Source of the DNA: Basidiobolus ranarum
Lineage: Eukaryota
Direction: 5' to 3'
DNA length: 24,150 bases
Assembly: GCA_040143965.1 (NCBI GenBank)
Contig: JASJQH010000001.1
Location: 62,001 to 86,150, forward strand
Below are positions 901-20,491 of this stretch, in pieces (the stretch's first letter is position 1; every line of letters begins with the position of its first letter). The notes under the pieces are model-generated. The model did not search any database. It was not told the DNA's origin and worked only from the letters and a program-made list of their open reading frames with translations. The translations under genes were made by a program, and so were the position numbers.

Positions 901-2440
901 TTAAAATCCACTGTCAAACAAATAATTGGCAGCTAATTCCTCATTTTTATCGCAAGCAAAGTAGGCCTCAGTGGCGGTTTCACGATCAAATCCTAGAGCG
1001 ACCAGCTATGGTAGAGATGTTAATATATTTCTTATGAATATTGTATTAAATACTTCTGTAAAACTCTACCCTGTCTATGGCTTCCTTCTCTTGGTCGGAG
1101 ATTTGAATATATTGCATTTCTGGTTCTTCAGGATCGTAGTCTTCATCATCATCCATGTCATCATTATCAGCACTTAACAATTGGAAGAAGGTGTCCTGAT
1201 TCTCATTGATCAGCTGGAGAAGTTCAGGGTTAGCTTGACCAAGTTGTTGTAAAAGAGGTTGAAGTAACTCTGGGTTTTGTTGAACAAGTTGACGTAATTG
1301 CTGGAACTGTGGCTGGCTTGTAAGATACGAGAGATCAGCATCCTCCTCGTCCTGTTCTTCCATAGCGGCGGCATGTTCAGCTGCTGCAGTGAAAAGATTT
1401 TGAGGTTGACCTGGAGGATAGCATAAGGACAGTGTTACAATCGTGTATTGATTGAAAGGAGTTAAAAGAAACTATAATTACGAAGGCTAGAGGCCGTGAC
1501 TTCACGCTCTGGATGCTCAGGAATACCCTATTATATATCCCATGAGTATTTGTGACAATGATTAATATATATTTGTATTTCTAGAAACAAACATTCATCA
1601 AGTATTCCACTGCCCTATCAGGGTTATTGAAACTAGCACGCATTGCTTTTGTTATCTTTTCACGTTCGAATCCCATTTCCAACATATGTGAAATAGCTGC
1701 TTCATGCTCAGGCCCAGTTGCTTGAGTTCATAAGTTAGTTCGGGTAGTATCATAAAAACATGCATACAAAAGAAGTACCTAATTCTGCATCTACATTAGT
1801 AGCATTTTGGGTATTAGTGGGTGGTCTAGGGGCAGGTGTGTCATCTGGTTTGTCCTCAGAATTAGTTTGACGCTGATTAATTCGGGTGGGTGCCTGAGGG
1901 GTTTGAACTAGGACAGCAGGTGGGGCAGGTGTGGCTGGAGTGGCGGTGGTGGTAGCAGCTGAAGCAGCAGGTTGGGCTTTTGGCTGATTAAAAGTTACAA
2001 ATTAGTCTATATGAAGCGATGTTTTCAAAGAATAGATGAATTGCTAGTACCTTTGACACCATGACAACCATAAAGTCTCTTTCGGTAGCGTTATATTCTG
2101 AAACTAACTTATCATCGACCAAGATTTTGCCTGAAATATTTCGTAACGTAAAAGAATATATCAACTATAAATAATCTCGCTAAATACGCGGAAAGAAGAG
2201 TAGTTTTATATAGGAACCAAAAATTACCAGAGAAAATCAACTTTTGTTGAGCTACCGGATAGCCTTGGCTTTGCTCAATCTTCTCCTTCAAGTTCGAAAC
2301 CTAATATTTCCCCAGGTAAAGTTAATTTCTCAGGTACTTTGGTTGTGTCAATTACTTTCTCTCTCAAAATTTACCTTGTCTTCAGGTTCTACCTCGATTT
2401 GAAATTGCTTCTGTTGTAAGGTCTTGATAGTAAGCTTCAT
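901..2440 (-). CDS. RAD23: UV excision repair / proteasome shuttle protein Rad23 (UBL-UBA-XPC-binding-UBA), 347 aa, 8 exons
   Basis: Exons 2440-2375, 2300-2228, 2130-2051, 1983-1779, 1720-1593, 1527-1482, 1410-1070, 1005-901 (1044 nt). [22 protein letters not shown]...[14 protein letters not shown]1 MLEMGFERE...[23 protein letters not shown]-binding [39 protein letters not shown]2 EAIDRLVALGF...[17 protein letters not shown]. Confidence 0.97.
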
Positions 2441-2814: not shown

Positions 2815-4945
2815 TTATAATGGTGAGGTTTCACGGATGAGCCAGTCATAAGCCAACTTGTTGTTTTCGAGAAGAGGTGCAATCTTTGTACGAGTGAGTG
2901 TGTGGTAATCATTGACCCACTTGAGTTCTTCGGAATTGAGCAATGAGCTCTGAATCAACTTACGCATCATAGGTACTAGGGTGATGTGCTCAAACCCGAG
3001 GTAGCTGCGGTTACCAAAGTTGTAGGATGTCTTCTCTTCGCGGATCAACAAGATATTCTCGATACGGATACCGAATTTGCCATCTTCATAGTAGCCAGGT
3101 TCATCCGTGACAGTCATACCTTTAGAGAGGCCAACTTCATTTGCGCTAGCACGGATCGCAATTCCGTGTGGTCCTTCGTGGACGTTTAAGAATGAACCTA
3201 CTCCGTGTCCAGTGCCATGACGGAAATCAAGTCCAGCCTTCCAGAGGCTACTTCTGGAAAAGGCATCGATTTGATACCCGGTGGTTCCTTGGGGGAAAAC
3301 GAGGGTATCGAGGGCGATATGTCCCTTGAGTACTCTAGTATAACATTCACGTTCATACTCGGTAGGATTAGTGAAATGAATGGTACGAGTGACATCAGTT
3401 GTACCATCAAGATACTGAGCTCCAGAGTCGCAAAGATAAATTTGGTTCTTGTCAATAATGGAGCATGTCTCCTTTTCTGGTTTGTAATGAATGATTGCAC
3501 CGTTGGGACCGGTGGAGGAGATGGTATCGAAGCTGAGGTCAAAGAAATCGGCTTGTTCTCTTCTGAATTGTTCAAGCTTGTCAGCTCCATCGACCTCACT
3601 GATATTGGTATTACCCTTATTAATCAACTCATCTTCCAACCAGGCAAAGTAGCTGATCAAAGCAGCGGCGTCTCTAAGATGACACTGTCTCATACCCTCA
3701 AGCTCGACTTCGTTCTTAATACTCTTGGCATCACCAATTGGTGAGCGAAGTTCATGCACATTCTCGGCTCCGATGGTTTCGTACAAAGCGAAACTGGCCC
3801 TGTTGGCCATGAGAAGTTTCTAACACACCACACAAAGTTTAGTTTATCGTTTGATAGCTTAAAAACTAGTTAATATATGAAATCTACCTTTTTCTCGGTA
3901 GCGGCTTGAACTGAAGTTTGCTTGAGTTGTTCCCAGATAGCATTATAAGGGTGAACCTGAACATTAGCACCAATGTGTGCCTTAACCTATGTATAGGAAT
4001 ATAACTTAGTACAATGGTGGATCATATTCTGTGTGTAAGACTACTAACCTCATCTGTAAGCTTCTCCTCATTGATATATAAGATAGCCTCTTTCTCAGTG
4101 ATCAAGGCATAAGAAAAGAAGACTGGATTACATTGAATATCGTTACCACGCAAGTTGAAAAGCCAAGCGATTTCGTCCAAAGCAGAGACAACAAAGCCAT
4201 AAGCATTATGCTTTTGAAATTGCTCTCTGAGTTGTTCAAGTTTATCTTCAACTGATTGACCAGCGTACTTGATAGGATGAACAAAGATTTTGTTGGAGGG
4301 GAAGTTTGGTTGGTCTTCCCATATACGGTCGACTAAATTTTCATGAATAGTGACCAAAGAAGAGTTGACACTTTGTAACTCGTCGCTAAGTTTTCTAGCT
4401 TCAGGAGCAGCGATGAGTTTAGGGTCAATACCTACTCGGGAGCCAGCAGGAAGATTTTTAACCACATACTCTTGCCAGGTAGGTACTTCTGGAAGTCCTT
4501 GCTTCATAAGAGTCCAATTGGAATCAAGTTGCTGTGATGCTTGAAGGAAGTAACGACCGTCAGTAAAAAGAGCGGCAGCTTCGGTGGAGACGACAGCACA
4601 GCCAGCAGATCCAGTGAAACCGGAGATGTAAGGTCTACGATTGTCACAATCAGCAGTATACTCACTCTGGTGAGCATCTTCACTTGGGATAATATAAGCT
4701 TGGACGTTATATTCTTTCTTAGCCATAAGCTCTCTGAGCTTAGCTAAGCGTTCGGTAGTATTGATAGCTGGCATATTGGTGGAGTAAAAATGTTCAAACC
4801 GAGTGTTTAAACGAAGCTTATTTGAAAGGTACTGAGGGTTTTTGTATTTATAAGCAAACTGAGTTGTGGGTATAGAAGCAGCAGTACTTCTGACGTTACC
4901 GACAACAGAAAAGCTAGGTATACAATTCTTGAACAGAAATCGCAT
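2815..4945 (-). CDS. Xaa-Pro aminopeptidase P (M24B, XPNPEP1/Fra1-like), 666 aa from the first ATG, 3 exons
   Basis: Exons 4945-4049, 3986-3888, 3819-2815 (2001 nt). Motifs [83 protein letters not shown] and GIRIEN are present, so the metal ligands are intact. The ORF-track start at 4987 is a TTG. The first ATG is at 4945 and a second in-frame ATG is at 4774. Confidence 0.95.
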
Positions 4946-5471
4946 GATTTTAACAAATATTGTTTTCTCGAAGGACGAGAATGCCAATCAACTTTTTTAG
5001 GTTGCGTAATTTTGTCACGTTTTATCGTGATTGGTAAAGTTGGATTATATATATGTGTACAATAAATATAGTATAAAATAAGGTGGTTACTTGAATAAGG
5101 ATGACCTAGCCAATGAAGTCGAGAGAATTAGGTTTTGTTCTCGGATAGATGTACAATGATGTGCCACTGTGCATGGAGCGCAAACCGAGAGAGGCAGCTG
5201 GTAGATCAGGTCATGTCACTTCGGTGTTACTGTGAAGATTTGTGTCGATCTGTGAGTTCATACGCAAAGCAACAATGTTGGGATGGCAAGCTGGTGTTTA
5301 TTTAAATTAGTGATCAATATTGCAAACAAATGAAAGCTAAAACGGCCAACAAGCTTCATTGATAACATTAAATATCCAAGAACCAAGCTCTTCAAACGAA
5401 ACGTATATTCTAATGACAAGTGTGAAACAAGATAAAAATGGCGAATGAGAAGTGTAAGTGGAATGTACATA

Positions 5472-8459
5472 TCAATCAAATGAGGAAAAGCTACGACCTC
5501 TCCCACGCCCTCTGGATCTTCCACGACCTCGGAAATTAGGTATCCTAGAAGGGTCGCTGTCGTCATAATGACCGTCATAGCCACCTCGTCTAGATGGGTT
5601 GACCAATGTACGAGGTCGATTGAAAGTTTGCTCGCGGTGCTCGGCTCTGTTGATTTTAAGTATACCAGCATTCCATTCACAGCCATCGTGTCTTAGTCCA
5701 CGCTCCATACTTTCTGGATCTTTGAAATCAACAAAACAAAAAGCTCTTTGTTGTCCAGTGTGACGATCATGTACCAACTTCACTTGATTGATTGCGCTCC
5801 GCAAACTTCCAAAAATCCCTTTCACATCCTCATCTGTATATGGAGTTTTATTGAATCCTCCGACCCATATAGTATATGGCCCTGTGGATGGGGTAGGGGC
5901 TGTCTTTACGGGATCCGCATCTGCCCAAACACTTGCACTAGCTCCCACTCCAGACTTGGTTGACGGGGTGGTTTCATCCTCACTAAAATCCATAGCTGGG
6001 GAGCCTCTCGAAGCAGCAGTTGATAAGGCTGGGTCATTTTGAGCGTTTAGATCGACCCAGCTTCCATTTTCTTCAAACACATCTTCACTCCAATCTATCA
6101 TATGACCCTTTGAGATATTCTCTGGTAAATCCTCATCCCAATTCATGGGCCCGTCAAACACCGGTTCATCCCAGTTCATTTGACCTACGTCCTCAGATAC
6201 AACATCATCCCAGCTAGAAGCACATTTGTGATCTTCATTATCTTGCTTGACTGCATTACCATTGGACTCGAGTTGGATTTTTGGTGGTGTTTGATTTGTG
6301 AGAGTTTCCATGGTGCCGTTCCTGGTTGGTGTGGAGACCTCATGCTCTGTTGACACCCGAGTAAGTTTGGTTAGTTAATACAAAATTAACTCGAAGATAC
6401 CCTGAAATCGTATTACCATCTTTCTCAACCCCGTTGGTGGTTGTTGTGCTACTAACGGTTGACTTCGTTTTAGTTTGAAGCTTCAAAGCATTTTTTAAAC
6501 GATGGCCAAAATCGATTCCTGCGAAAGATATTAAATTAAGTACTCGCTGAGGTCGTCGTAATATATCTAGAGCTTACCAGTAGATTTGGTTTCAGCGGCG
6601 ATAGAGCCATTTGAAATATCCAAAATTAAAGAACCTTTGGTCGGCTCAGGCAACCCAAATGTCCAAAAGTTCTCTAAAAGACTCTCCGTTTCGGGTAGAG
6701 TATTCAAAGCGGCCAATCCACTTTTCAACCATTGTACTTGCTGGGGGCTGATTTTGAAAGTTAAGATTTGTTGCTCTAGTAGAATAATTCAAGCTAAGTG
6801 AGGATTACCTGTGGCTATTTTCAATATCTACTCTGATCTTCTCCCAGATCTCCACGAGACTGGATCGAGCTTTTACCAGTTTCTCTTGGTAGGTTTGAGG
6901 ATCCGCCAAGATTGATGTTTCAGTGTAGCTTAAGCAGTACTTTGCATTTTCCTCAGGGGAAATAGCATAATCTACCTGGTAACAATTTCGAATTTAATTT
7001 AAGAAATTGGTTGGGACAAAGTTCACGTTAGCTTACATTAAGTGTGTGTGCAAGTTGAGCAATGACTTCATGTTTGGTTGGGGCAACTGTAGCCATTAGA
7101 ATTCGCACTTCCGATGGGTCGTAAACCTTAAGAATTGTCAAAATAAATGATTTGAATTACAACGAATTGATCAGACTTGCGTATACCTTTTGAGCCGTGT
7201 CGATCAACTTTCCCATACGCACAAGATTAATATACGAGCCAGTCAGTTGATCTATGTAGAAGGAATATTAGCATTGATTTCGAAAGTTTCTCGCATTATC
7301 CTAGACAATATATTACTTTCGGGGACAAATAAACGTTGAAGTGAATAGTCACCAGATATTCCCAACAGGCGTATTTTGTTTCCTCCTAACTCAATTACTC
7401 CGCTACTACCACTATGTAAAATGTGTAGTTGAGGAATAGCTATCTTTTCTTCAAGTAATTTTTCTACGATAACAGTGTCTTCATTAGCACCGTATATTGT
7501 ATAAACAGGCACATCAAATTTCAAGGTGCCGGCAAGGACAGAAGAAAATTGGGAGAGTTCGGTACAGGTCGGCTGTTTACGAAGGCTATCCAAAGGTAAA
7601 CTGTTCAATCTGACTTTTTCCTCTTTAGAGAGCAGTGGACTAGATAGAATTATATTTCTCAACGAGCTAGATAAAGTATGAATTATTTACTGAAGGTATG
7701 TCTTTAAGGAGGCGCTCAATATAATAAAGTATGTGTTTTCCTACCTCTCTGGAATACGATTGCAGCTCCCGGTATCTAACAATATAAATAAAAGTTGAGG
7801 AAAAGTCGAAGAGAAGCTTCTTCACATAAAATTACCATAAAATCCAAATTCTCCACAATGAAGAACTGCAACTGCTTCATAGCGCTTTGCTAGTTGATTG
7901 AGGTAAGAGAAATTACCTAAAAATATCAAAAGGTTTATGAATATTCAATTCCTCTGTGAAATATATCATCTCGAGAAAAAAATCCTGTAGATGACTCAAA
8001 TGGGTATGTGGAGAGAAAATGTACAGTAGATCTCAGAATCACATACCTCTAATATTAGCGATACAGAGTAGTCTTCCCGCTTGGGTATCGAATACTCTAA
8101 CGTTTTTATTATCCATTTCTGATGAGTAGCTACTCTTCAGAGTAACTTCTGGTGCTTGGAGAGATTCTTTCTTTGAAGTAAAATCTAGGTTCTTCGCGTT
8201 AGTAATGTTGATAAAGATGAAATAAGTCGGGATTGTCTCATTTACTTTCTTTAGATTTATCGACTTGACTTTTGATGATGCTTGATACAACTTCTTCCGA
8301 GGATATCACTTGTGTATTTCCTGTTGCTGACCAATTTTGCCAGCTGGTGGCGTCGTACTGTGGTATGGATGAACTTTCAGAAGGGTCTCTTGATTTTGGG
8401 CTTCGAGTGTTTTTCGTTGTTGGTTTACGAAAATTCTTGACCTTTTGCTGCTCTGACAT
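5472..8459 (-). CDS. DUF2433-type calcineurin-like metallophosphoesterase-fold protein (degenerate) with Trp-acidic linker, C-terminal RRM and RG-rich tail, 760 aa, 11 exons
   Basis: Exons 8459-8246, 8184-8047, 7916-7836, 7775-7745, 7666-7317, 7251-7187, 7126-7037, 6975-6809, 6747-6578, 6518-6417, 6346-5472 (2283 nt, open frame). GRLLCIANIRGNFSYLNQLA...LHCGEFGFYD, PVYTIYGANED, LRLLG-like IRLLGISG, GKLIDTAQKVYDPSEVRIL and GIDFGHR resemble the fungal DUF2433 phosphoesterase family as I recall it. RRM has RNP2 TIWVGGF and RNP1 RAFCFVDF. Tail is RGRGRSRGRGRGR. Confidence 0.85.
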
Positions 8460-9087: not shown

Positions 9088-12000
9088 ATGAGAAAGAAAA
9101 TAAAGTCGGCTTCGAAGAAAGTTTTTGGAGATAAGAATATTTACATAAGTCCTTGGCTAGAAACCAAAGAATATGAGGAGGTATATGCGGATATATATAT
9201 GTATATACATTTATAGAAACACAAAACATCATAAACTAAGATTTTGACTCTGCATTACTTTTTTTTGCGTAATTTAGATTAAAGAAATACTAGTAGAGCA
9301 CGAAGCTTTCATAGTGAAAGATAAGAAAGATCCCGAGAATTTGTACATCATAACAAGAGACATAAGTGATGGCTTCGATATAGAACAGTGTACAATTGTA
9401 ACGGTACGCTTACGAGAATATGGAATGCTTAAAATGTTTCTCTGATCTTAATAGGCCTTTATTTAGCCAAACTGGGTATATCAAACCATTCATACCGGAT
9501 ATTTGCAAAGGTTTTTATTAGTATTACTACAATATTTACCCTGACGACCATTAAACTCCTTTACAGTGAAGTCGCCTATTCTCCAGATCCTTTTCATGTC
9601 TTTTCAGGAACTGTCATATCATCAATACACGTAAGGACAAATACCATTCAACCATTGATAATGTTACAAGCTCTAGCTAACGATTCTTTGTTAGCTATCG
9701 GAGTTTGATCAAGATTCTTTATTTGCTGGAGTAGAAGCGCTAGGTGGCCAATGGACAGAAGATTATACAGCAGATGTCACTCATCTTGTGGCAGCTTATC
9801 CAGATGGGGTATGCATGGATTTTTGAGACAAAGATCTGTTTTTAAAACCAAGTGGTGAAATGTAAATTGCTTACTTTTTACATTAGGAGATGTACGAAAA
9901 AGCGATATCAAGTAACACATGTCAAGTAGTGATTCCGCATTGGATTGATGATAGCTTGAAGCTTCGACGAATACTCCCCGAAGTAATATAATTCTCTCCA
10001 GAAATGAACCATGCTTTCAATACATCTCATGCCTCTCTTCCTGTTAGAAAGTATACTCATACCCAGAGCCATCCATATATAGACTCTTCATAGATCAAGG
10101 GGAAACAAGCGTATTCTTACCGGCATCACAGACTGATCGAATTCCTGTATTCTATCCTGAAGATCAAACCGTCCCTGTGCCAAACTCGAAATTTCTACAA
10201 GGATATACATTTTTGCTTTCGGATGACTTGACCCACATTCCTGAAATCATCCAAGTCTTACATGAAAGGCTAGAACAGGCAGGTGCCAAAGTAGCAAAGA
10301 CTTATTCCAAGAATGTTAACTGCATTGTGTGTAAATATCGACTGGGCGATATATACATACGAGTAAGTAATCTTATTATCAAACTGGGTTTAAACCATGT
10401 AAATAATCCTATTTTTCCAGGCCTCTCTTGATCAACAGATTATTGGAAATTTAACTTGGCTCTATTATATTTTAAACGTGGGTAAGATCTCTAATCCACT
10501 GAGATTCTTGCTACATTATCCATTACCGAAGGGGGGAATCCCTCAATTTCAAACATATGTAAGTCAGCGAATACCCTTATCGCACTTAAAGTTGGGAATG
10601 CTCTCACGATATTGATTTGTTAATCGTTGCGCTTCTTAGACTATTACGCTCACAAATTATATTGGCAATGCTCGTGAGTATCTAAAAAGGCTGATCGTTG
10701 GGATGGGGGCTACTTATACTGGCCATATGGGATCAACTCACTCACACCTGATCTGTGGAAGGTAAATACCAACGCTAAGATGGAAACAGTTGTTATCTCA
10801 CATGAAAATAGACACTAATAGTATATTAATCAATCAGTTTAAGCGGAGAAAAATGTCGTAAAGCACAAGAGTGGAATGTAAACATGGTCAATCATTTGTG
10901 GTTAGAGGACTGCTTTCGTTCTTGGACATTGCATAGTATTACCAAACATCAATACGTACACTTCCCGAATGGAATCAATTTGACTGACGTGATAGGACAA
11001 TGTACCCAACTTTCAAACAAAATTACTGATTGGTACAGAAAAGTTGAACTTGGTCCTGACACAGGATCTCATTCAAAATCCCACGAGATTCCTAGAGAGA
11101 ATCCAGAGAAGTTGGAAACTGATATTACCCAAGCTCATTCAAGTAATAGCAACTTAGATTTTGAAACGAATCATTTCGTGAAAACTTCATTTGCTGACAA
11201 ATCAAATAGAGCGACAATAGTAAAAAAGACGAAACAAATTCAGCTCGGCCAAAAAAGCAATCACGTAAACTCAAAAAGTCTTCTGGATAAAGAAAAAATG
11301 GTAAAGAAACAAGACAATATCGCGGAACCGTTGATCATAGATAAACTCGCCAACGACGTGAAGTTAATTGATGACCAAGGCCAATCTGATGATAAGTAGG
11401 CTCTTATCTCTCTGTTTCTGCTTTCAAAAAGCCTACCATATAACACTAGGAATCTTTTTCAATAGAGCTTCAGCGCGTGCACCCAAAAAACGCAAAAAGA
11501 TAGCAGATCCAAAGCAAAGTAGTGCTGAATCGACGATATCTAAGACATCATCCAGGTCGATTCGAATCTTAAGCACTGGAGTTAAACTAACAGAAAAAGA
11601 AATCAAGGTATATAGCTACTTATAACCACTACAATCAGAATTAGCTCCTAATCTAAACAATACTCTAGGGAATCAAAGCATTGGGTGCTAAAATAGCCAC
11701 ATCTCCGAAGGATTGCACCCATCTCATAGCAAACCAAGCCACACGAACCGAAAAATTTCTATCAGCAATCTCAGTAGCGGAATATATCTTAACCCGAGAT
11801 TGGGTTAACCAAAGTTTAAAAGCTCACACCTTTTTGGGTGAGTATTTCTCCTAGTACCACATCTTTGTGTAGTATCAGAATAGGCCAAGTTCGATATCCT
11901 AACCAGTTTTTATATAGACGAGGAAGGGTTTCAATTAGAGGACGAAGCATCAGAAAAGAACTATCAATTCTCATTGAAAGAGTCTTTAATACGTGCTAAA

Positions 12001-14424: not shown

Positions 14425-16998
14425 ATGTTTCGTTTAAGGTAAGCGAGCTATTTACTCATTGAATGATGTATTTGGGAATGTTTGTAACGTGGAATCTTTA
14501 GGAATGCCGCCTCATTGTATCCAAAATCCAGCCTTCTACGTAGTGTATCGGTGAGTAACATGTCAATGTCCAAGCTATGCTATCTAGATATCAATGATCT
14601 GAACTTTGGTTTCACCATCTAGTCTACCATAAATCAGTCACGCAGACTACCACATGTGAAATTGTTACGCAGCTATTATACTGGTGGCAATCAAAAACTA
14701 AAAGAATGGGTGGCCAAACATGAGAAGACCTTAAAACCATCTAAAGTCCATTGGGTCGATGGATCTGAACAAGAGTACAAACAACTAGTCGATTCGTTAG
14801 TTAAACGTGGAGTCATGATACCATTGAATCCCGAAAAACGACCAAATTCATACTTGACTCGTACGGACCCAGCAGATGTTGCTAGAGCAGAAAGTTCCAC
14901 CTTCATATGCTCCAAAAACCCGGAAGATGCGGGGTATGTTTCAATGTCATGTTGTCTATGCGAGTCTGAGATATCTAAATTCTGAATATCCTCTCAAACT
15001 AACTCTCATATTCTGTTCACTTCAGTCCTACTAATAATTGGGTGAACCCAGAAGAAATGAGGGCTCAACTTGCTAAAAATTTCGATGGTTGTATGGAAGG
15101 TAAACCTAGTTGATCTCGAATAATATTCTTATTCTGCATTGATATCAACCCAGTCTTCTGCCTTTTTTCGTATTCTCGCATAGGACGCACGATGTATGTT
15201 ATTCCATTTAGCATGGGTCCCATCGGCTCTCCATTAGCGAGAATAGGTGTACAACTTACAGATTCTCCTTTTGTGGTTGCTAATATGCGTATCATGACAC
15301 GCATGGGGAGTAAAGTCCTAGAACAACTTGGTGATAAAGGTGAATTTGTCCCATGTGTGCATTCCGTTGGATGCCCATTACCCAACGGTAAAGAAGATTC
15401 TCTATGGCCTTGTAATATTCCAGAACGAAAAGTTGTACATTTCCCAGAATCAAGAGAAATTTGGAGCTTTGGCTCAGGGTAATGATAAATTTGTAATATC
15501 CCTTTTGACTTTCACTAGAGAAGAGTACTCACTCCATATTTAGATATGGTGGTAATTCACTTTTAGGCAAGAAATGTCTTGCTTTACGTATCGCTTCAGT
15601 AATGTCAAGAGATGAAGGAACTCTAGCAGAACATATGCTGATTCTGGGATTAACAAGTCCCGAAGGAAAGAAGCACTACGTTGCCGCTGCTTTCCCAAGG
15701 TAATGGTCTATATTGAAAGAAAACACGACAAGTTCCAAATATTAAAAATGATATATATACCATTTGCCAATGTAGTGCATGTGGTAAAACCAATCTAGCG
15801 ATGATGGAACCAGCATTGCCTGGATGGAAAATTGAAACGGTCGGCGATGATATTGCTTGGATGAGAATTAACGAGAAAGACTCGCGTTTATACGCAATTA
15901 ATCCCGAGGCAGGCTTCTTTGGAGTCGCTCCGGGCACCTCCAGTTCAACAAACCCTAACGCGATGGAATCAATTCGTAGTGATACTATATTCACGAATGT
16001 TGCATTAACGGAAGATGGTGATGTCTGGTGGGAGGGTATGAGTAAACAGCCCCCCTCAGGTAAAATTATCGATTGGCATGGTAACGAATGGGAAAAAAGT
16101 GAATCAGAGCCTGTGCGTAAAGAGCCTTTAGCTCATTCAAATTCCCGTTTTACTACATCTATATCTCAATGTCCAGTTAAAGACCCACGTTGGGAAGATC
16201 CCAATGGAGTACCCATCTCTGCCATTATCTTTGGGGGTAGACGTGAACATTCAATCCCTCTAGTATTCCAAGCTTTAAATTGGAATCATGGCGTCCTCTG
16301 TGGAGCTTCAGTAGCAAGTGAAAAGACTGCAGCAGCTGAAGGAACTGACATCGGAATAGTAAGACATGACCCATTTGCAATGCTACCCTTCTGTGGGTAT
16401 AATATGGGAGACTACTTCAAGTAAGTTCTAGAGTTCAGTCGAAATAATAGCCAACGCAAGTATTATTTACTGAACGGTACGATTTACCTGCATTTTTCTA
16501 GACACTGGATCTCTATCGGTCAAACTTCCCCAGATCCATCGAAACTTCCAGCAATTTTCCACGTTAACTGGTTCCGTAAAGGATCAGATGGGAAATTTCT
16601 CTGGCCAGGATTTGGAGACAATTCACGGTAGATGGGTTTGATTGATTTTGCATGCTATACATTCATAATAACAATTGAAATTTAGAGTTTTAAAATGGAT
16701 TGTGGAACGTATTGATAACCCTGAATCTGATGCCCAGATGTCACCGATCGGATATCTACCCAAGCCAAACTCTCTAGATCTTTCTGGAATTGAAGAGGTA
16801 GCCACACCAGAGGTGATGTCAGAGCTTCTCAATGTCAGTAGAGAATCCTTTATGAATCAAGTTCGTGAAAATCGGGAATACTTCTCGGTATTTGGTGAAC
16901 ATTTCCCCAAGGAATTGAAAGACGAATTGGATCAAATGGAAGCTCGACTCAAGGCGAATCAACAAGTGGAAAGTGCTGGCAAAGAAGCGGTAGTTTAA
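14425..16998 (+). CDS. pckG: GTP-dependent phosphoenolpyruvate carboxykinase (EC 4.1.1.32) with a predicted mitochondrial presequence, 660 aa, 9 exons
   Basis: Exons 14425-14438, 14502-14550, 14623-14933, 15026-15099, 15184-15478, 15544-15699, 15776-16420, 16502-16627, 16686-16998 (1983 nt). GTP-family motifs [110 protein letters not shown] and [15 protein letters not shown]. Confidence 0.97.
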
Positions 16999-18552: not shown

Positions 18553-20491
18553 CTAATGTCCACTAGCTGCAATAACGTTGTCCGATTGTTTCTTTCTTAT
18601 GGCTGGGATTTTACGTAAGAACAGTAATACGATCACGGCAAGAATTCCAAAAGGAATCACCGACAGAAAACTTTTATTCAACGCATTGACGTACGCGCCA
18701 ATGACTCCTTTGCGAATCTCTGGGTCTAGTTGTTGAATGGCGGTGACCGAAAGGGCTGCAGTTTCCGACTTTATACAAATGGTTTAGTCGAGCAGATTGG
18801 AGTGAAAATGAAATTAAAAAGGAGCTCACCGAAGTAGAAGGTAACACTTTCTTGATATTCTCACCAAGGAAATTGGTTAGAACTGCACCTTGAATGGCTA
18901 CACCAAATACACCACCAATAGTTCTTAAGAATGTCACCAGAGATGTAGTAGAGGCAATATCTGTAAATGATTAGATGTTATGAGATATGGAAAGCTTCTA
19001 CAAACACTGTCAGTCATAAAATATTACCTTTAACCTCAACTGAAGCTTGCGCCGCTAACAACAATGTTTGAATCTCGCAACCAAAGCCAACTCCAATGAG
19101 TACTAAGTAAATAATTAATAGCGCGCGACTGGTATTTTCATTCAAAGTGGATGATAACCCCAAACCAACTGTTAATATTACAGCTCCTGGAACTGCAAAC
19201 ACTCGATACCACCCACGAGAAGCAGAAACCGCGCCAGAAAGTATGGAGGTAGAGGTGACACCTAACATGAATGGAAGGAGTTGAAGTCCAGCCCCAGTGG
19301 CTGTATATCCTTTGACCACTTGAAAGTAAATGGGCAAGTAATACTGTGCACCAAATACACTGGCACCCACCATAAAGAATCCAATACTAGAGACAAGTAC
19401 ATTTCGAATTTTGAACAGATGTGGTGCGATTAATGGTTCTTTCGACGTTTTTAACTCAACAAGTACGAAAGCAATCAGTAGTATAAAGCCAACGCAGTAA
19501 ACCGATATTACCACTGGGGATGACCAAGGATAGTCATTACCACCCCAGTTAGTGGCGAGCAAAATACATATAACCGAGCCCAGGAGAGTGAAAATTCCCC
19601 AATAATCGATTTTGTACAACTTCTCACGAAATGAGCCTTCAGGAACTGGCATCTTCAACATGAATATGACAACAAACAAAGTAATAGCTCCAATAGGCAT
19701 ATTGATATAGAATGCCCAGCGCCAGCTAACATGATCGGAGAATATACCACCCAGTAGCGGACCCAATACTCCAGATAGGGCAAACACTGCACCAATAACG
19801 CCAAGATATTTGCCGCGCTTATGGAGAGGGAAAATATCTTGTTATAAGAGAAGAGAGGTTAAAAACGAAGCTCAAAAAATAGCGTGTGTAGAGAGTCACT
19901 TACCAGAAATGATAATCACTACCAAGCAAATTATACCACCACCGCCGATTCCAGACACCGCACGGAATATAATCAGCATTGTCATATTCTGGGACACTCC
20001 ACACATAATCGAACCACCCAAGAATGTAACCAATGCAAAAAGAATAGTCGCTTTACGGCCAAAGATATCAGAAAACTTGCCATATAACGGTTGAAACGAT
20101 GTGAATGTTAATAGATAAGACGTTGCTACCCATGACACTTGGTTCAAAGCATTGAATTCTGATGAAATGGCAGGAAGTGCTGTAGCTACAATAGTCTGAT
20201 CTAGTGAAGCGAGAAAGATCGCAAGCATCAGACTAATAGATTACACTCTTACAGTTAGTCAGAATTTACTGAAGTCTTAGTAAAGAATCGGTATACATAC
20301 CCTACGAATATAATGATGCGTTGACGGGGAGTGTATTTAAGCTCCAACCCTTCAGGATCCATATCGAATTTGATTGTCTTCTCCATGTTATCAATTGCAA
20401 CCTCAGTATCCGCTTTCTCGGTAAACTCCGTGGCTGGAGATGGAGTCACAGTTGTGCTCTCGGAGTCGTCTTTTACCTTCAAACTTGTCAT
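18553..20491 (-). CDS. MFS drug:H+ antiporter, DHA2 (14-TMS, EmrB/QacA/Azr1-like), 558 aa, 5 exons
   Basis: Exons 20491-20301, 20232-19904, 19837-19028, 18960-18830, 18768-18553 (1677 nt). Motif D1 FLASLDQTIVATALP, WVATSYLL, motif A YGKFSDIFGRK, motif B IFRAVSGIGGGG, motif C GPLLGG...WRWAFYINMPIG, motif E IDYWG, and FLRTIGGVFG. Confidence 0.95.

Follow-up and report, generated by a model that had tools for sequence, protein, structure and literature searches.

The locus considered here raises the question of whether a fungus outside the Dikarya forms phosphoenolpyruvate (PEP) inside its mitochondria. It lies in a stretch of 24,150 nucleotides (nt) of the Basidiobolus ranarum genome (assembly GCA_040143965.1, contig JASJQH010000001.1, positions 62,001 to 86,150 of the forward strand), hereafter the window, in which positions 14425-16998 hold a gene for a phosphoenolpyruvate carboxykinase (PEPCK) of the GTP type. 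In the yeasts and Dikarya the same overall reaction, with its gluconeogenic role, is carried out by the ATP-dependent Pck1, and in animals the localisation and processing of the mitochondrial isoform, PCK2 or PEPCK-M, are known from experiments. An earlier note, made from the letters of the window alone, had read the gene as a GTP-PEPCK with a mitochondrial presequence and offered PEP formation in the matrix as a possible route outside the standard picture of fungal metabolism. What the sequence supports of that reading is the GTP family of the enzyme, the structure of the gene and an N-terminal extension that resembles a presequence and lies outside the catalytic core; the novelty was overstated. 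Judged by the composition of its N-terminus and by comparison with its relatives, the enzyme probably resides in the mitochondrial matrix. Rather than a new route, the gene likely represents an old eukaryotic, probably mitochondrial PEPCK, lacking in Dikarya, that has been retained in a non-Dikarya fungus.

Pfam, an NCBIfam equivalog and alignment to solved structures all identify the predicted product of the gene as a GTP-type PEPCK. Four of the five exon translations searched match PF17297 (PEPCK_N) or PF00821 (PEPCK_GTP) at 83-343 bits, the cut-off being 23.8, and the fifth, the 42 residues of exon 8 alone, has no Pfam match. The NCBIfam PEPCK (GTP) equivalog NF003253 is matched at 918.5 bits (cut-off 504), with residues 43-649 lying on positions 19-611 of the 612 in the profile. 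The Pfam and NCBIfam matches confirm the family named in the earlier note. There are 23 distinct solved GTP-PEPCK sequences that match at E<=1e-50, and the solved animal cytosolic and mitochondrial chains align over residues 44-646 (E 1e-196 to 1e-210). Compared with 4wiu_A, the stretches GSGYGGN.LLGKKC, FPSACGKTN, GDDIAWM, NSR[FY] and NWFR are identical or conservatively kept; we take these conserved stretches to be the catalytic and nucleotide-site ones. No match to PEPCK_ATP, the different family to which the Dikarya Pck1 belongs, was obtained for the B. ranarum protein in the Pfam searches with the exons or in the NCBIfam search with the whole protein.

The gene model was built from stop-to-stop frames and a scripted search for GT/GC..AG joins, and the script chose the exon chain that reproduces protein P0121 of the homologue set. 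The gene has nine exons on the forward strand and eight introns, all of them GT..AG and 58-92 nt long. The spliced coding sequence of 1983 nt gives 660 residues, which equal P0121 letter for letter (KAK9768937.1, 'hypothetical protein K7432_000063 [Basidiobolus ranarum]', for which UniRef gives the name PEPCK (GTP)). Exons 1 and 2, of 14 and 49 nt, splice in frame to exon 3. These two micro-exons had been proposed in the earlier note, together with the N-terminus they encode, as unseen by the open reading frame track. Both the exons and the N-terminus agree exactly with KAK9768937.1, and the exons are indeed absent from the plain list of open reading frames, but they were already included in the deposited public model. 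The features of the gene are the following.

14425-14438 (+), exon 1: 14 nt; start codon, residues 1-4 and two bases of codon 5; donor AAG/GTAAGC
14439-14501 (+), intron 1: 63 nt, GT..AG; branch-like GTAAC 14 nt from the 3' end
14502-14550 (+), exon 2: 49 nt; leader residues 5-21; acceptor TTTAG, donor GTGAGT
14551-14622 (+), intron 2: 72 nt, GT..AG; gives an in-frame stop if retained
14623-14933 (+), exon 3: 311 nt; last leader residues, then the first part of the PEPCK N-terminal domain; PF17297, E 3e-23
14623-14676 (+), 5' part of exon 3: leader residues 22-39, the last three being R-S-Y
15026-15099 (+), exon 4: 74 nt; taken from the spliced chain
15184-15478 (+), exon 5: 295 nt; PEPCK N-terminal domain, PF17297, E 3.3e-43
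15544-15699 (+), exon 6: 156 nt; conserved GSGYGGN.LLGKKC stretch
15776-16420 (+), exon 7: 645 nt; core of the C-terminal P-loop domain, PF00821, E 1.6e-102
16502-16627 (+), exon 8: 126 nt; conserved NWFRK...WPGFG.NSR stretch
16686-16998 (+), exon 9: 313 nt; PF00821, E 7.6e-15; TAA stop at 16996-16998

The position of the start codon is constrained from several sides. An in-frame TAA stands immediately upstream of the ATG at 14425, the frame of exon 2 has an upstream stop at 14485-14487 and not a single ATG, and exon 3 starts directly after a stop codon. The second Met of the 660-residue protein is residue 86, within the conserved N-domain; translation thus could not start in exon 3 without loss of the conserved core, and the claim that no in-frame Met lies near the mature start stands. 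The leader part of exon 3 (residues 22-39) is conserved at the protein level in the Basidiobolus meristosporus protein P0006 and has no ATG, and an upstream exon is therefore required. When candidate first exons were scanned for, six ATG...GTR segments were found to be phase-compatible with exon 2. The annotated exon 1 is one of them and the only one with a consensus donor (GTAAGC), and its 63-nt intron is inside the range of the gene. The other five were judged weaker because of their intron lengths and non-consensus donors: four imply introns of 346-349 nt along with weaker donors, and one implies an intron of 34 nt.

The N-terminus encoded by these first exons has a distinct character. Whether made with Pfam, NCBIfam or PDB, the alignments do not begin before residues 43-49, which places the first ~40 residues outside the fold, and 49 residues precede the conserved Trp. 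Residues 1-48 contain no Asp or Glu at all (p about 1.3e-3, given 12.9% of these residues in the remainder of the protein). The first acidic residue is residue 49, in agreement with the earlier remark that about 45 residues are free of them. Arg and Lys make up 20.8% of residues 1-48 (10 residues) vs 10.6% of the remainder, and Ser and Thr 20.8% vs 12.4% (1.7 times). By sequence, such a composition, with no acidic residues and the basic ones doubled, is typical of presequences. Peroxisomal and secretory readings were dropped, since the B. ranarum protein has neither a PTS1 nor a PTS2 and its leader has no signal-peptide-like hydrophobic core (maximum KD9 0.97).

Leaders were then compared in 26 sequences from the 237 homologues, comprising 18 eukaryote-like ones and eight from named bacteria. 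In all eight bacterial sequences the conserved Trp is preceded by 9-24 residues. In 16 of the 18 eukaryote-like sequences, 29-123 residues precede it and are basic and rich in Ser and Thr; the two exceptions, at 26 and 8 residues, are the models from B. meristosporus. Leader extensions are seen in Mortierellaceae, Capsaspora, Nk52 and amoebozoans. The strict form of the MPP/Icp55 processing pattern, R-x-[YFL]-[SAT], occurs in the extension of seven of the 18 eukaryote-like sequences and in none of the eight bacterial ones, and counted per residue it is about five times as common in the extensions (0.0082) as in the mature parts (0.0016).

Put together, these observations suggest the following scheme. 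The nuclear gene would encode a precursor of GTP-dependent PEPCK (EC 4.1.1.32) with an N-terminal extension of some 20-40 residues, which most likely would serve as a matrix-targeting presequence. The leader would be recognised by the TOM/TIM23 import machinery, a processing peptidase would cut it off somewhere between about residues 20 and 40, and the mature enzyme in the matrix would catalyse oxaloacetate + GTP <-> PEP + GDP + CO2. The use of GTP and a flux towards PEP are predicted in this scheme, and the 'PEP cycle' envisaged in the earlier note, PEP export and a GTP supply in the matrix are likewise hypothetical.

The descent of the enzyme was followed in three trees of the same 44 sequences: a quick LG+G4 tree, a quick mixture-model tree and a careful mixture-model tree with bootstraps. 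The sequences were picked by hand from the homologues and consist of all the named eukaryotes, 10 further sequences and 17 named bacteria, the other homologues being left aside; the trees are unrooted and contain no animal PCK1 or PCK2 and no Neocallimastigomycota sequence. In the careful tree a branch with support 100/96 separates bacteria from eukaryotes, all 17 named bacteria and three further sequences being on one side. Basidiobolus and Mortierellaceae form a group (100/98) that is nested in another 100/98 group together with Capsaspora, Nk52 and further eukaryote-like sequences, and the amoebozoans fall outside the group of Capsaspora, Nk52 and fungi. Both quick trees reproduce these splits. 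On these sequence data the history of the gene fits vertical descent within eukaryotes. Two long-branched sequences with a Ser/Thr-rich N-terminus, P0205 and P0113, adjoin the fungal clade (97/94); going by their sequences, they may represent a cytosolic form from a eukaryote not yet sampled.

Three explanations other than the retention of an imported eukaryotic enzyme have to be weighed. The one that concerns descent holds that the gene was acquired recently from bacteria and gained its leader afterwards. Besides the general abundance of transferred genes in Basidiobolus, chlamydial, Ignavibacteria and spirochaete proteins that are ~70% identical on the most conserved exon speak for it, as does a figure legend in a preprint, which lists the PEPCK (GTP) of anaerobic gut fungi as horizontally acquired (bioRxiv 10.1101/487215). 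The eight spliceosomal introns of the gene argue against such an acquisition, and so do the 100/96 branch between Basidiobolus and every named bacterium and the position of Basidiobolus with Mortierellaceae inside the clade of Capsaspora and Nk52. With three trees agreeing on the eukaryotic placement, recent bacterial transfer was rejected, and we consider it extremely improbable. If what the legend of the preprint lists is right, the GTP-PEPCKs of fungi may have two origins, given that the Basidiobolus and Mortierellaceae enzyme groups with eukaryotes in the 44-sequence tree. Another explanation questions the N-terminus itself: exons 1 and 2 could be an annotation artefact, with the true first exon elsewhere or a non-AUG start, and thus a different N-terminus. 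A first coding exon of 14 nt is prone to misprediction, five more phase-compatible candidates are at hand, and the B. meristosporus models are without these leader residues. These points are opposed by the consensus donor and the 63-nt intron, which only the annotated exon 1 has, by the conserved, ATG-free 5' coding part of exon 3, which demands an upstream exon, and by the likeness of the B. ranarum N-terminus to the starts of its relatives (MF or ML followed by Arg or Lys). An artefact is accordingly regarded as improbable.

The remaining alternative accepts the extension as real and places the enzyme in the cytosol or in both compartments, the basic, Ser-rich N-terminus serving as a weak signal or, in disordered form, as a regulatory tail, and not as an efficient matrix presequence. 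Several observations lend it weight and at the same time tell against a matrix enzyme or the N-terminus on which that reading leans. When the residues of the leader were shuffled 2000 times, 806 of the shuffles reached its best hydrophobic moment over 11 residues, 0.65, and the amphipathicity of the leader thus adds nothing beyond its composition. The 'R-S-Y processing-type motif' of the earlier note is present at residues 37-39, but the next residue is Tyr and the strict R-x-[YFL]-[SAT] is absent from residues 1-49 of B. ranarum, where R-S-Y-Y (37-40) and R-S-V-S (18-21) come closest to it; the strict motif is likewise absent from both B. meristosporus sequences and the four Mortierellaceae sequences tested. 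P0205 and P0113, which are outside the 26-sequence comparison, have an N-terminus of 36-37 residues with few basic ones, so that a leader-like character is common, not universal. The first 21 residues are missing from both B. meristosporus models (P0006 and P0122): the first Met of P0006 occupies the position of Ile24 of B. ranarum, and P0122 begins later, just before the conserved Trp. Both are probably gene models truncated at the 5' end, the alternative being genuinely shorter starts, and the deposited B. ranarum model with exons 1 and 2 may itself be an automatic prediction. Inefficient import, too, may lead to dual or cytosolic residence. Against a cytosolic or dual enzyme stand the presequence-typical composition of the first 48 residues, the strict motif in extensions of eukaryote-like relatives and in none of the bacteria, and a study of isolated mitochondria from Dictyostelium that detected PEPCK in them and labelled it PCK2 (PMC8145953). 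We therefore find it unlikely, if clearly worth keeping in mind, that the enzyme works outside the matrix, and hold to a matrix GTP-PEPCK as the probable reading.

Comparison with known systems helps to place the B. ranarum enzyme. Animal PCK2 belongs to the same two-domain GTP-PEPCK fold family and resembles it in having an N-terminal extension outside the core, that of B. ranarum being presequence-like in composition. The two leaders, however, cannot be aligned. The closest named relatives outside Basidiobolus are the GTP-PEPCKs of Mortierellaceae, with 66-71% identity and a sister position at 100/98. They too have basic, Ser/Thr-rich N-terminal extensions, which at 44-123 residues are longer than the B. 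ranarum one and unrelated to it in sequence. The dictyostelid and amoebozoan enzymes are about 60-62% identical to the B. ranarum protein. In the tree, Rostrostelium P0063 and Acanthamoeba P0177 fall with it on the side of the eukaryotes, and their leaders contain the strict R-x-[YFL]-[SAT], which the B. ranarum leader lacks. The Dictyostelium discoideum PEPCK, which was found in a mitochondrial proteome (PMC8145953), is a presumed orthologue of P0063. The bacterial GTP-PEPCKs (NF003253; chains such as 4wiu) match over the full length and their catalytic motifs are kept in B. ranarum, but they lack the leader and occupy a separate side of the tree.

B. meristosporus has two PEPCK paralogues, ORX90126 and ORX93423, and among the homologues found there is one B. 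ranarum protein.

The claim of novelty went too far. The model had been deposited, animals are known to have a mitochondrial PEPCK, the enzyme has been detected in Dictyostelium mitochondria, and GTP-type PEPCK of fungi outside the Dikarya is in print. GTP-type PCK in fungi is already published (PMC2684135), the PCK genes of the Mortierella alpina genome are described as two of the GTP type and four of the ATP type (PMC3234268), and a review citing Reymond 1992 mentions an animal-like PEPCK cDNA from Neocallimastix frontalis (PMC5622200). Also reported are a PEPCK of unstated type from Euglena mitochondria (PMC7403612) and a Mortierella PEPCK that rises during lipid accumulation (PMC7328260). 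In the passages available from the Mortierella papers (PMC3234268; PMC7328260), PCK is treated without naming its compartment. No paper describing a fungal GTP-PEPCK as mitochondrial was found in a full-text literature mostly without subscription journals, which is weak evidence of its absence from print; in the same open-leaning literature no paper was found that joins Basidiobolus with phosphoenolpyruvate carboxykinase, or PEPCK with GTP and Neocallimastix.

A wider reading can be put forward tentatively, with somewhat more doubt than trust. A presequence-bearing GTP-PEPCK could go back to the ancestor of Amorphea (amoebozoans, holozoans and early fungi); zygomycete-grade fungi such as Basidiobolus and Mortierellaceae would still form PEP in the matrix from oxaloacetate and matrix GTP, the Dikarya would have lost this route and kept only the ATP-Pck1 of the cytosol, and in animals the cytosolic PCK1 would be the derived form. 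If so, early-diverging fungi would share with animals a kind of mitochondrial PEP shuttle that is missing from standard maps of fungal metabolism. Should the enzyme be a matrix one, the non-Dikarya fungi, oleaginous Mortierella included, would gain an intramitochondrial PEP-forming step in their carbon maps and genome-scale models, which would in turn have to include an exporter for PEP and a source of matrix GTP, and mitochondrial PEPCK would date from before the split of animals and fungi. The practical consequence is modest, namely the assignment of a compartment to a known enzyme.

The neighbours of the gene in the window are ordinary eukaryotic genes and suggest no functional cluster with PEPCK.

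1046-1471 (-): frame with an XPC-binding (Rad23-like) domain
2815-4987 (-): two adjacent frames with Creatinase_N, Creatinase_N_2, Peptidase_M24 and Peptidase_M24_C, a split X-Pro aminopeptidase gene
5472-6374 (-): RRM frame
10830-11399 (+): BRCT fragment
19014-19841 (-): MFS/TRI12-like transporter frame

Some of the homologues have an unusual architecture. In P0136 and P0137, from Actinomycetota metagenome bins (1065-1066 residues), the N- and C-terminal domains of GAPDH (PF00044 and PF02800) are joined to both PEPCK (GTP) domains, an apparent GAPDH-PEPCK fusion as far as the sequences tell. P0001, P0002 and P0003 (Nowakowskiella sp., a JGI record and Porphyridium purpureum; 1806-1924 residues) reach scores from ~800 bits upwards against one exon of 215 residues, which suggests several PEPCK copies per model, arising either from tandem genes merged by annotation or from true repeats.

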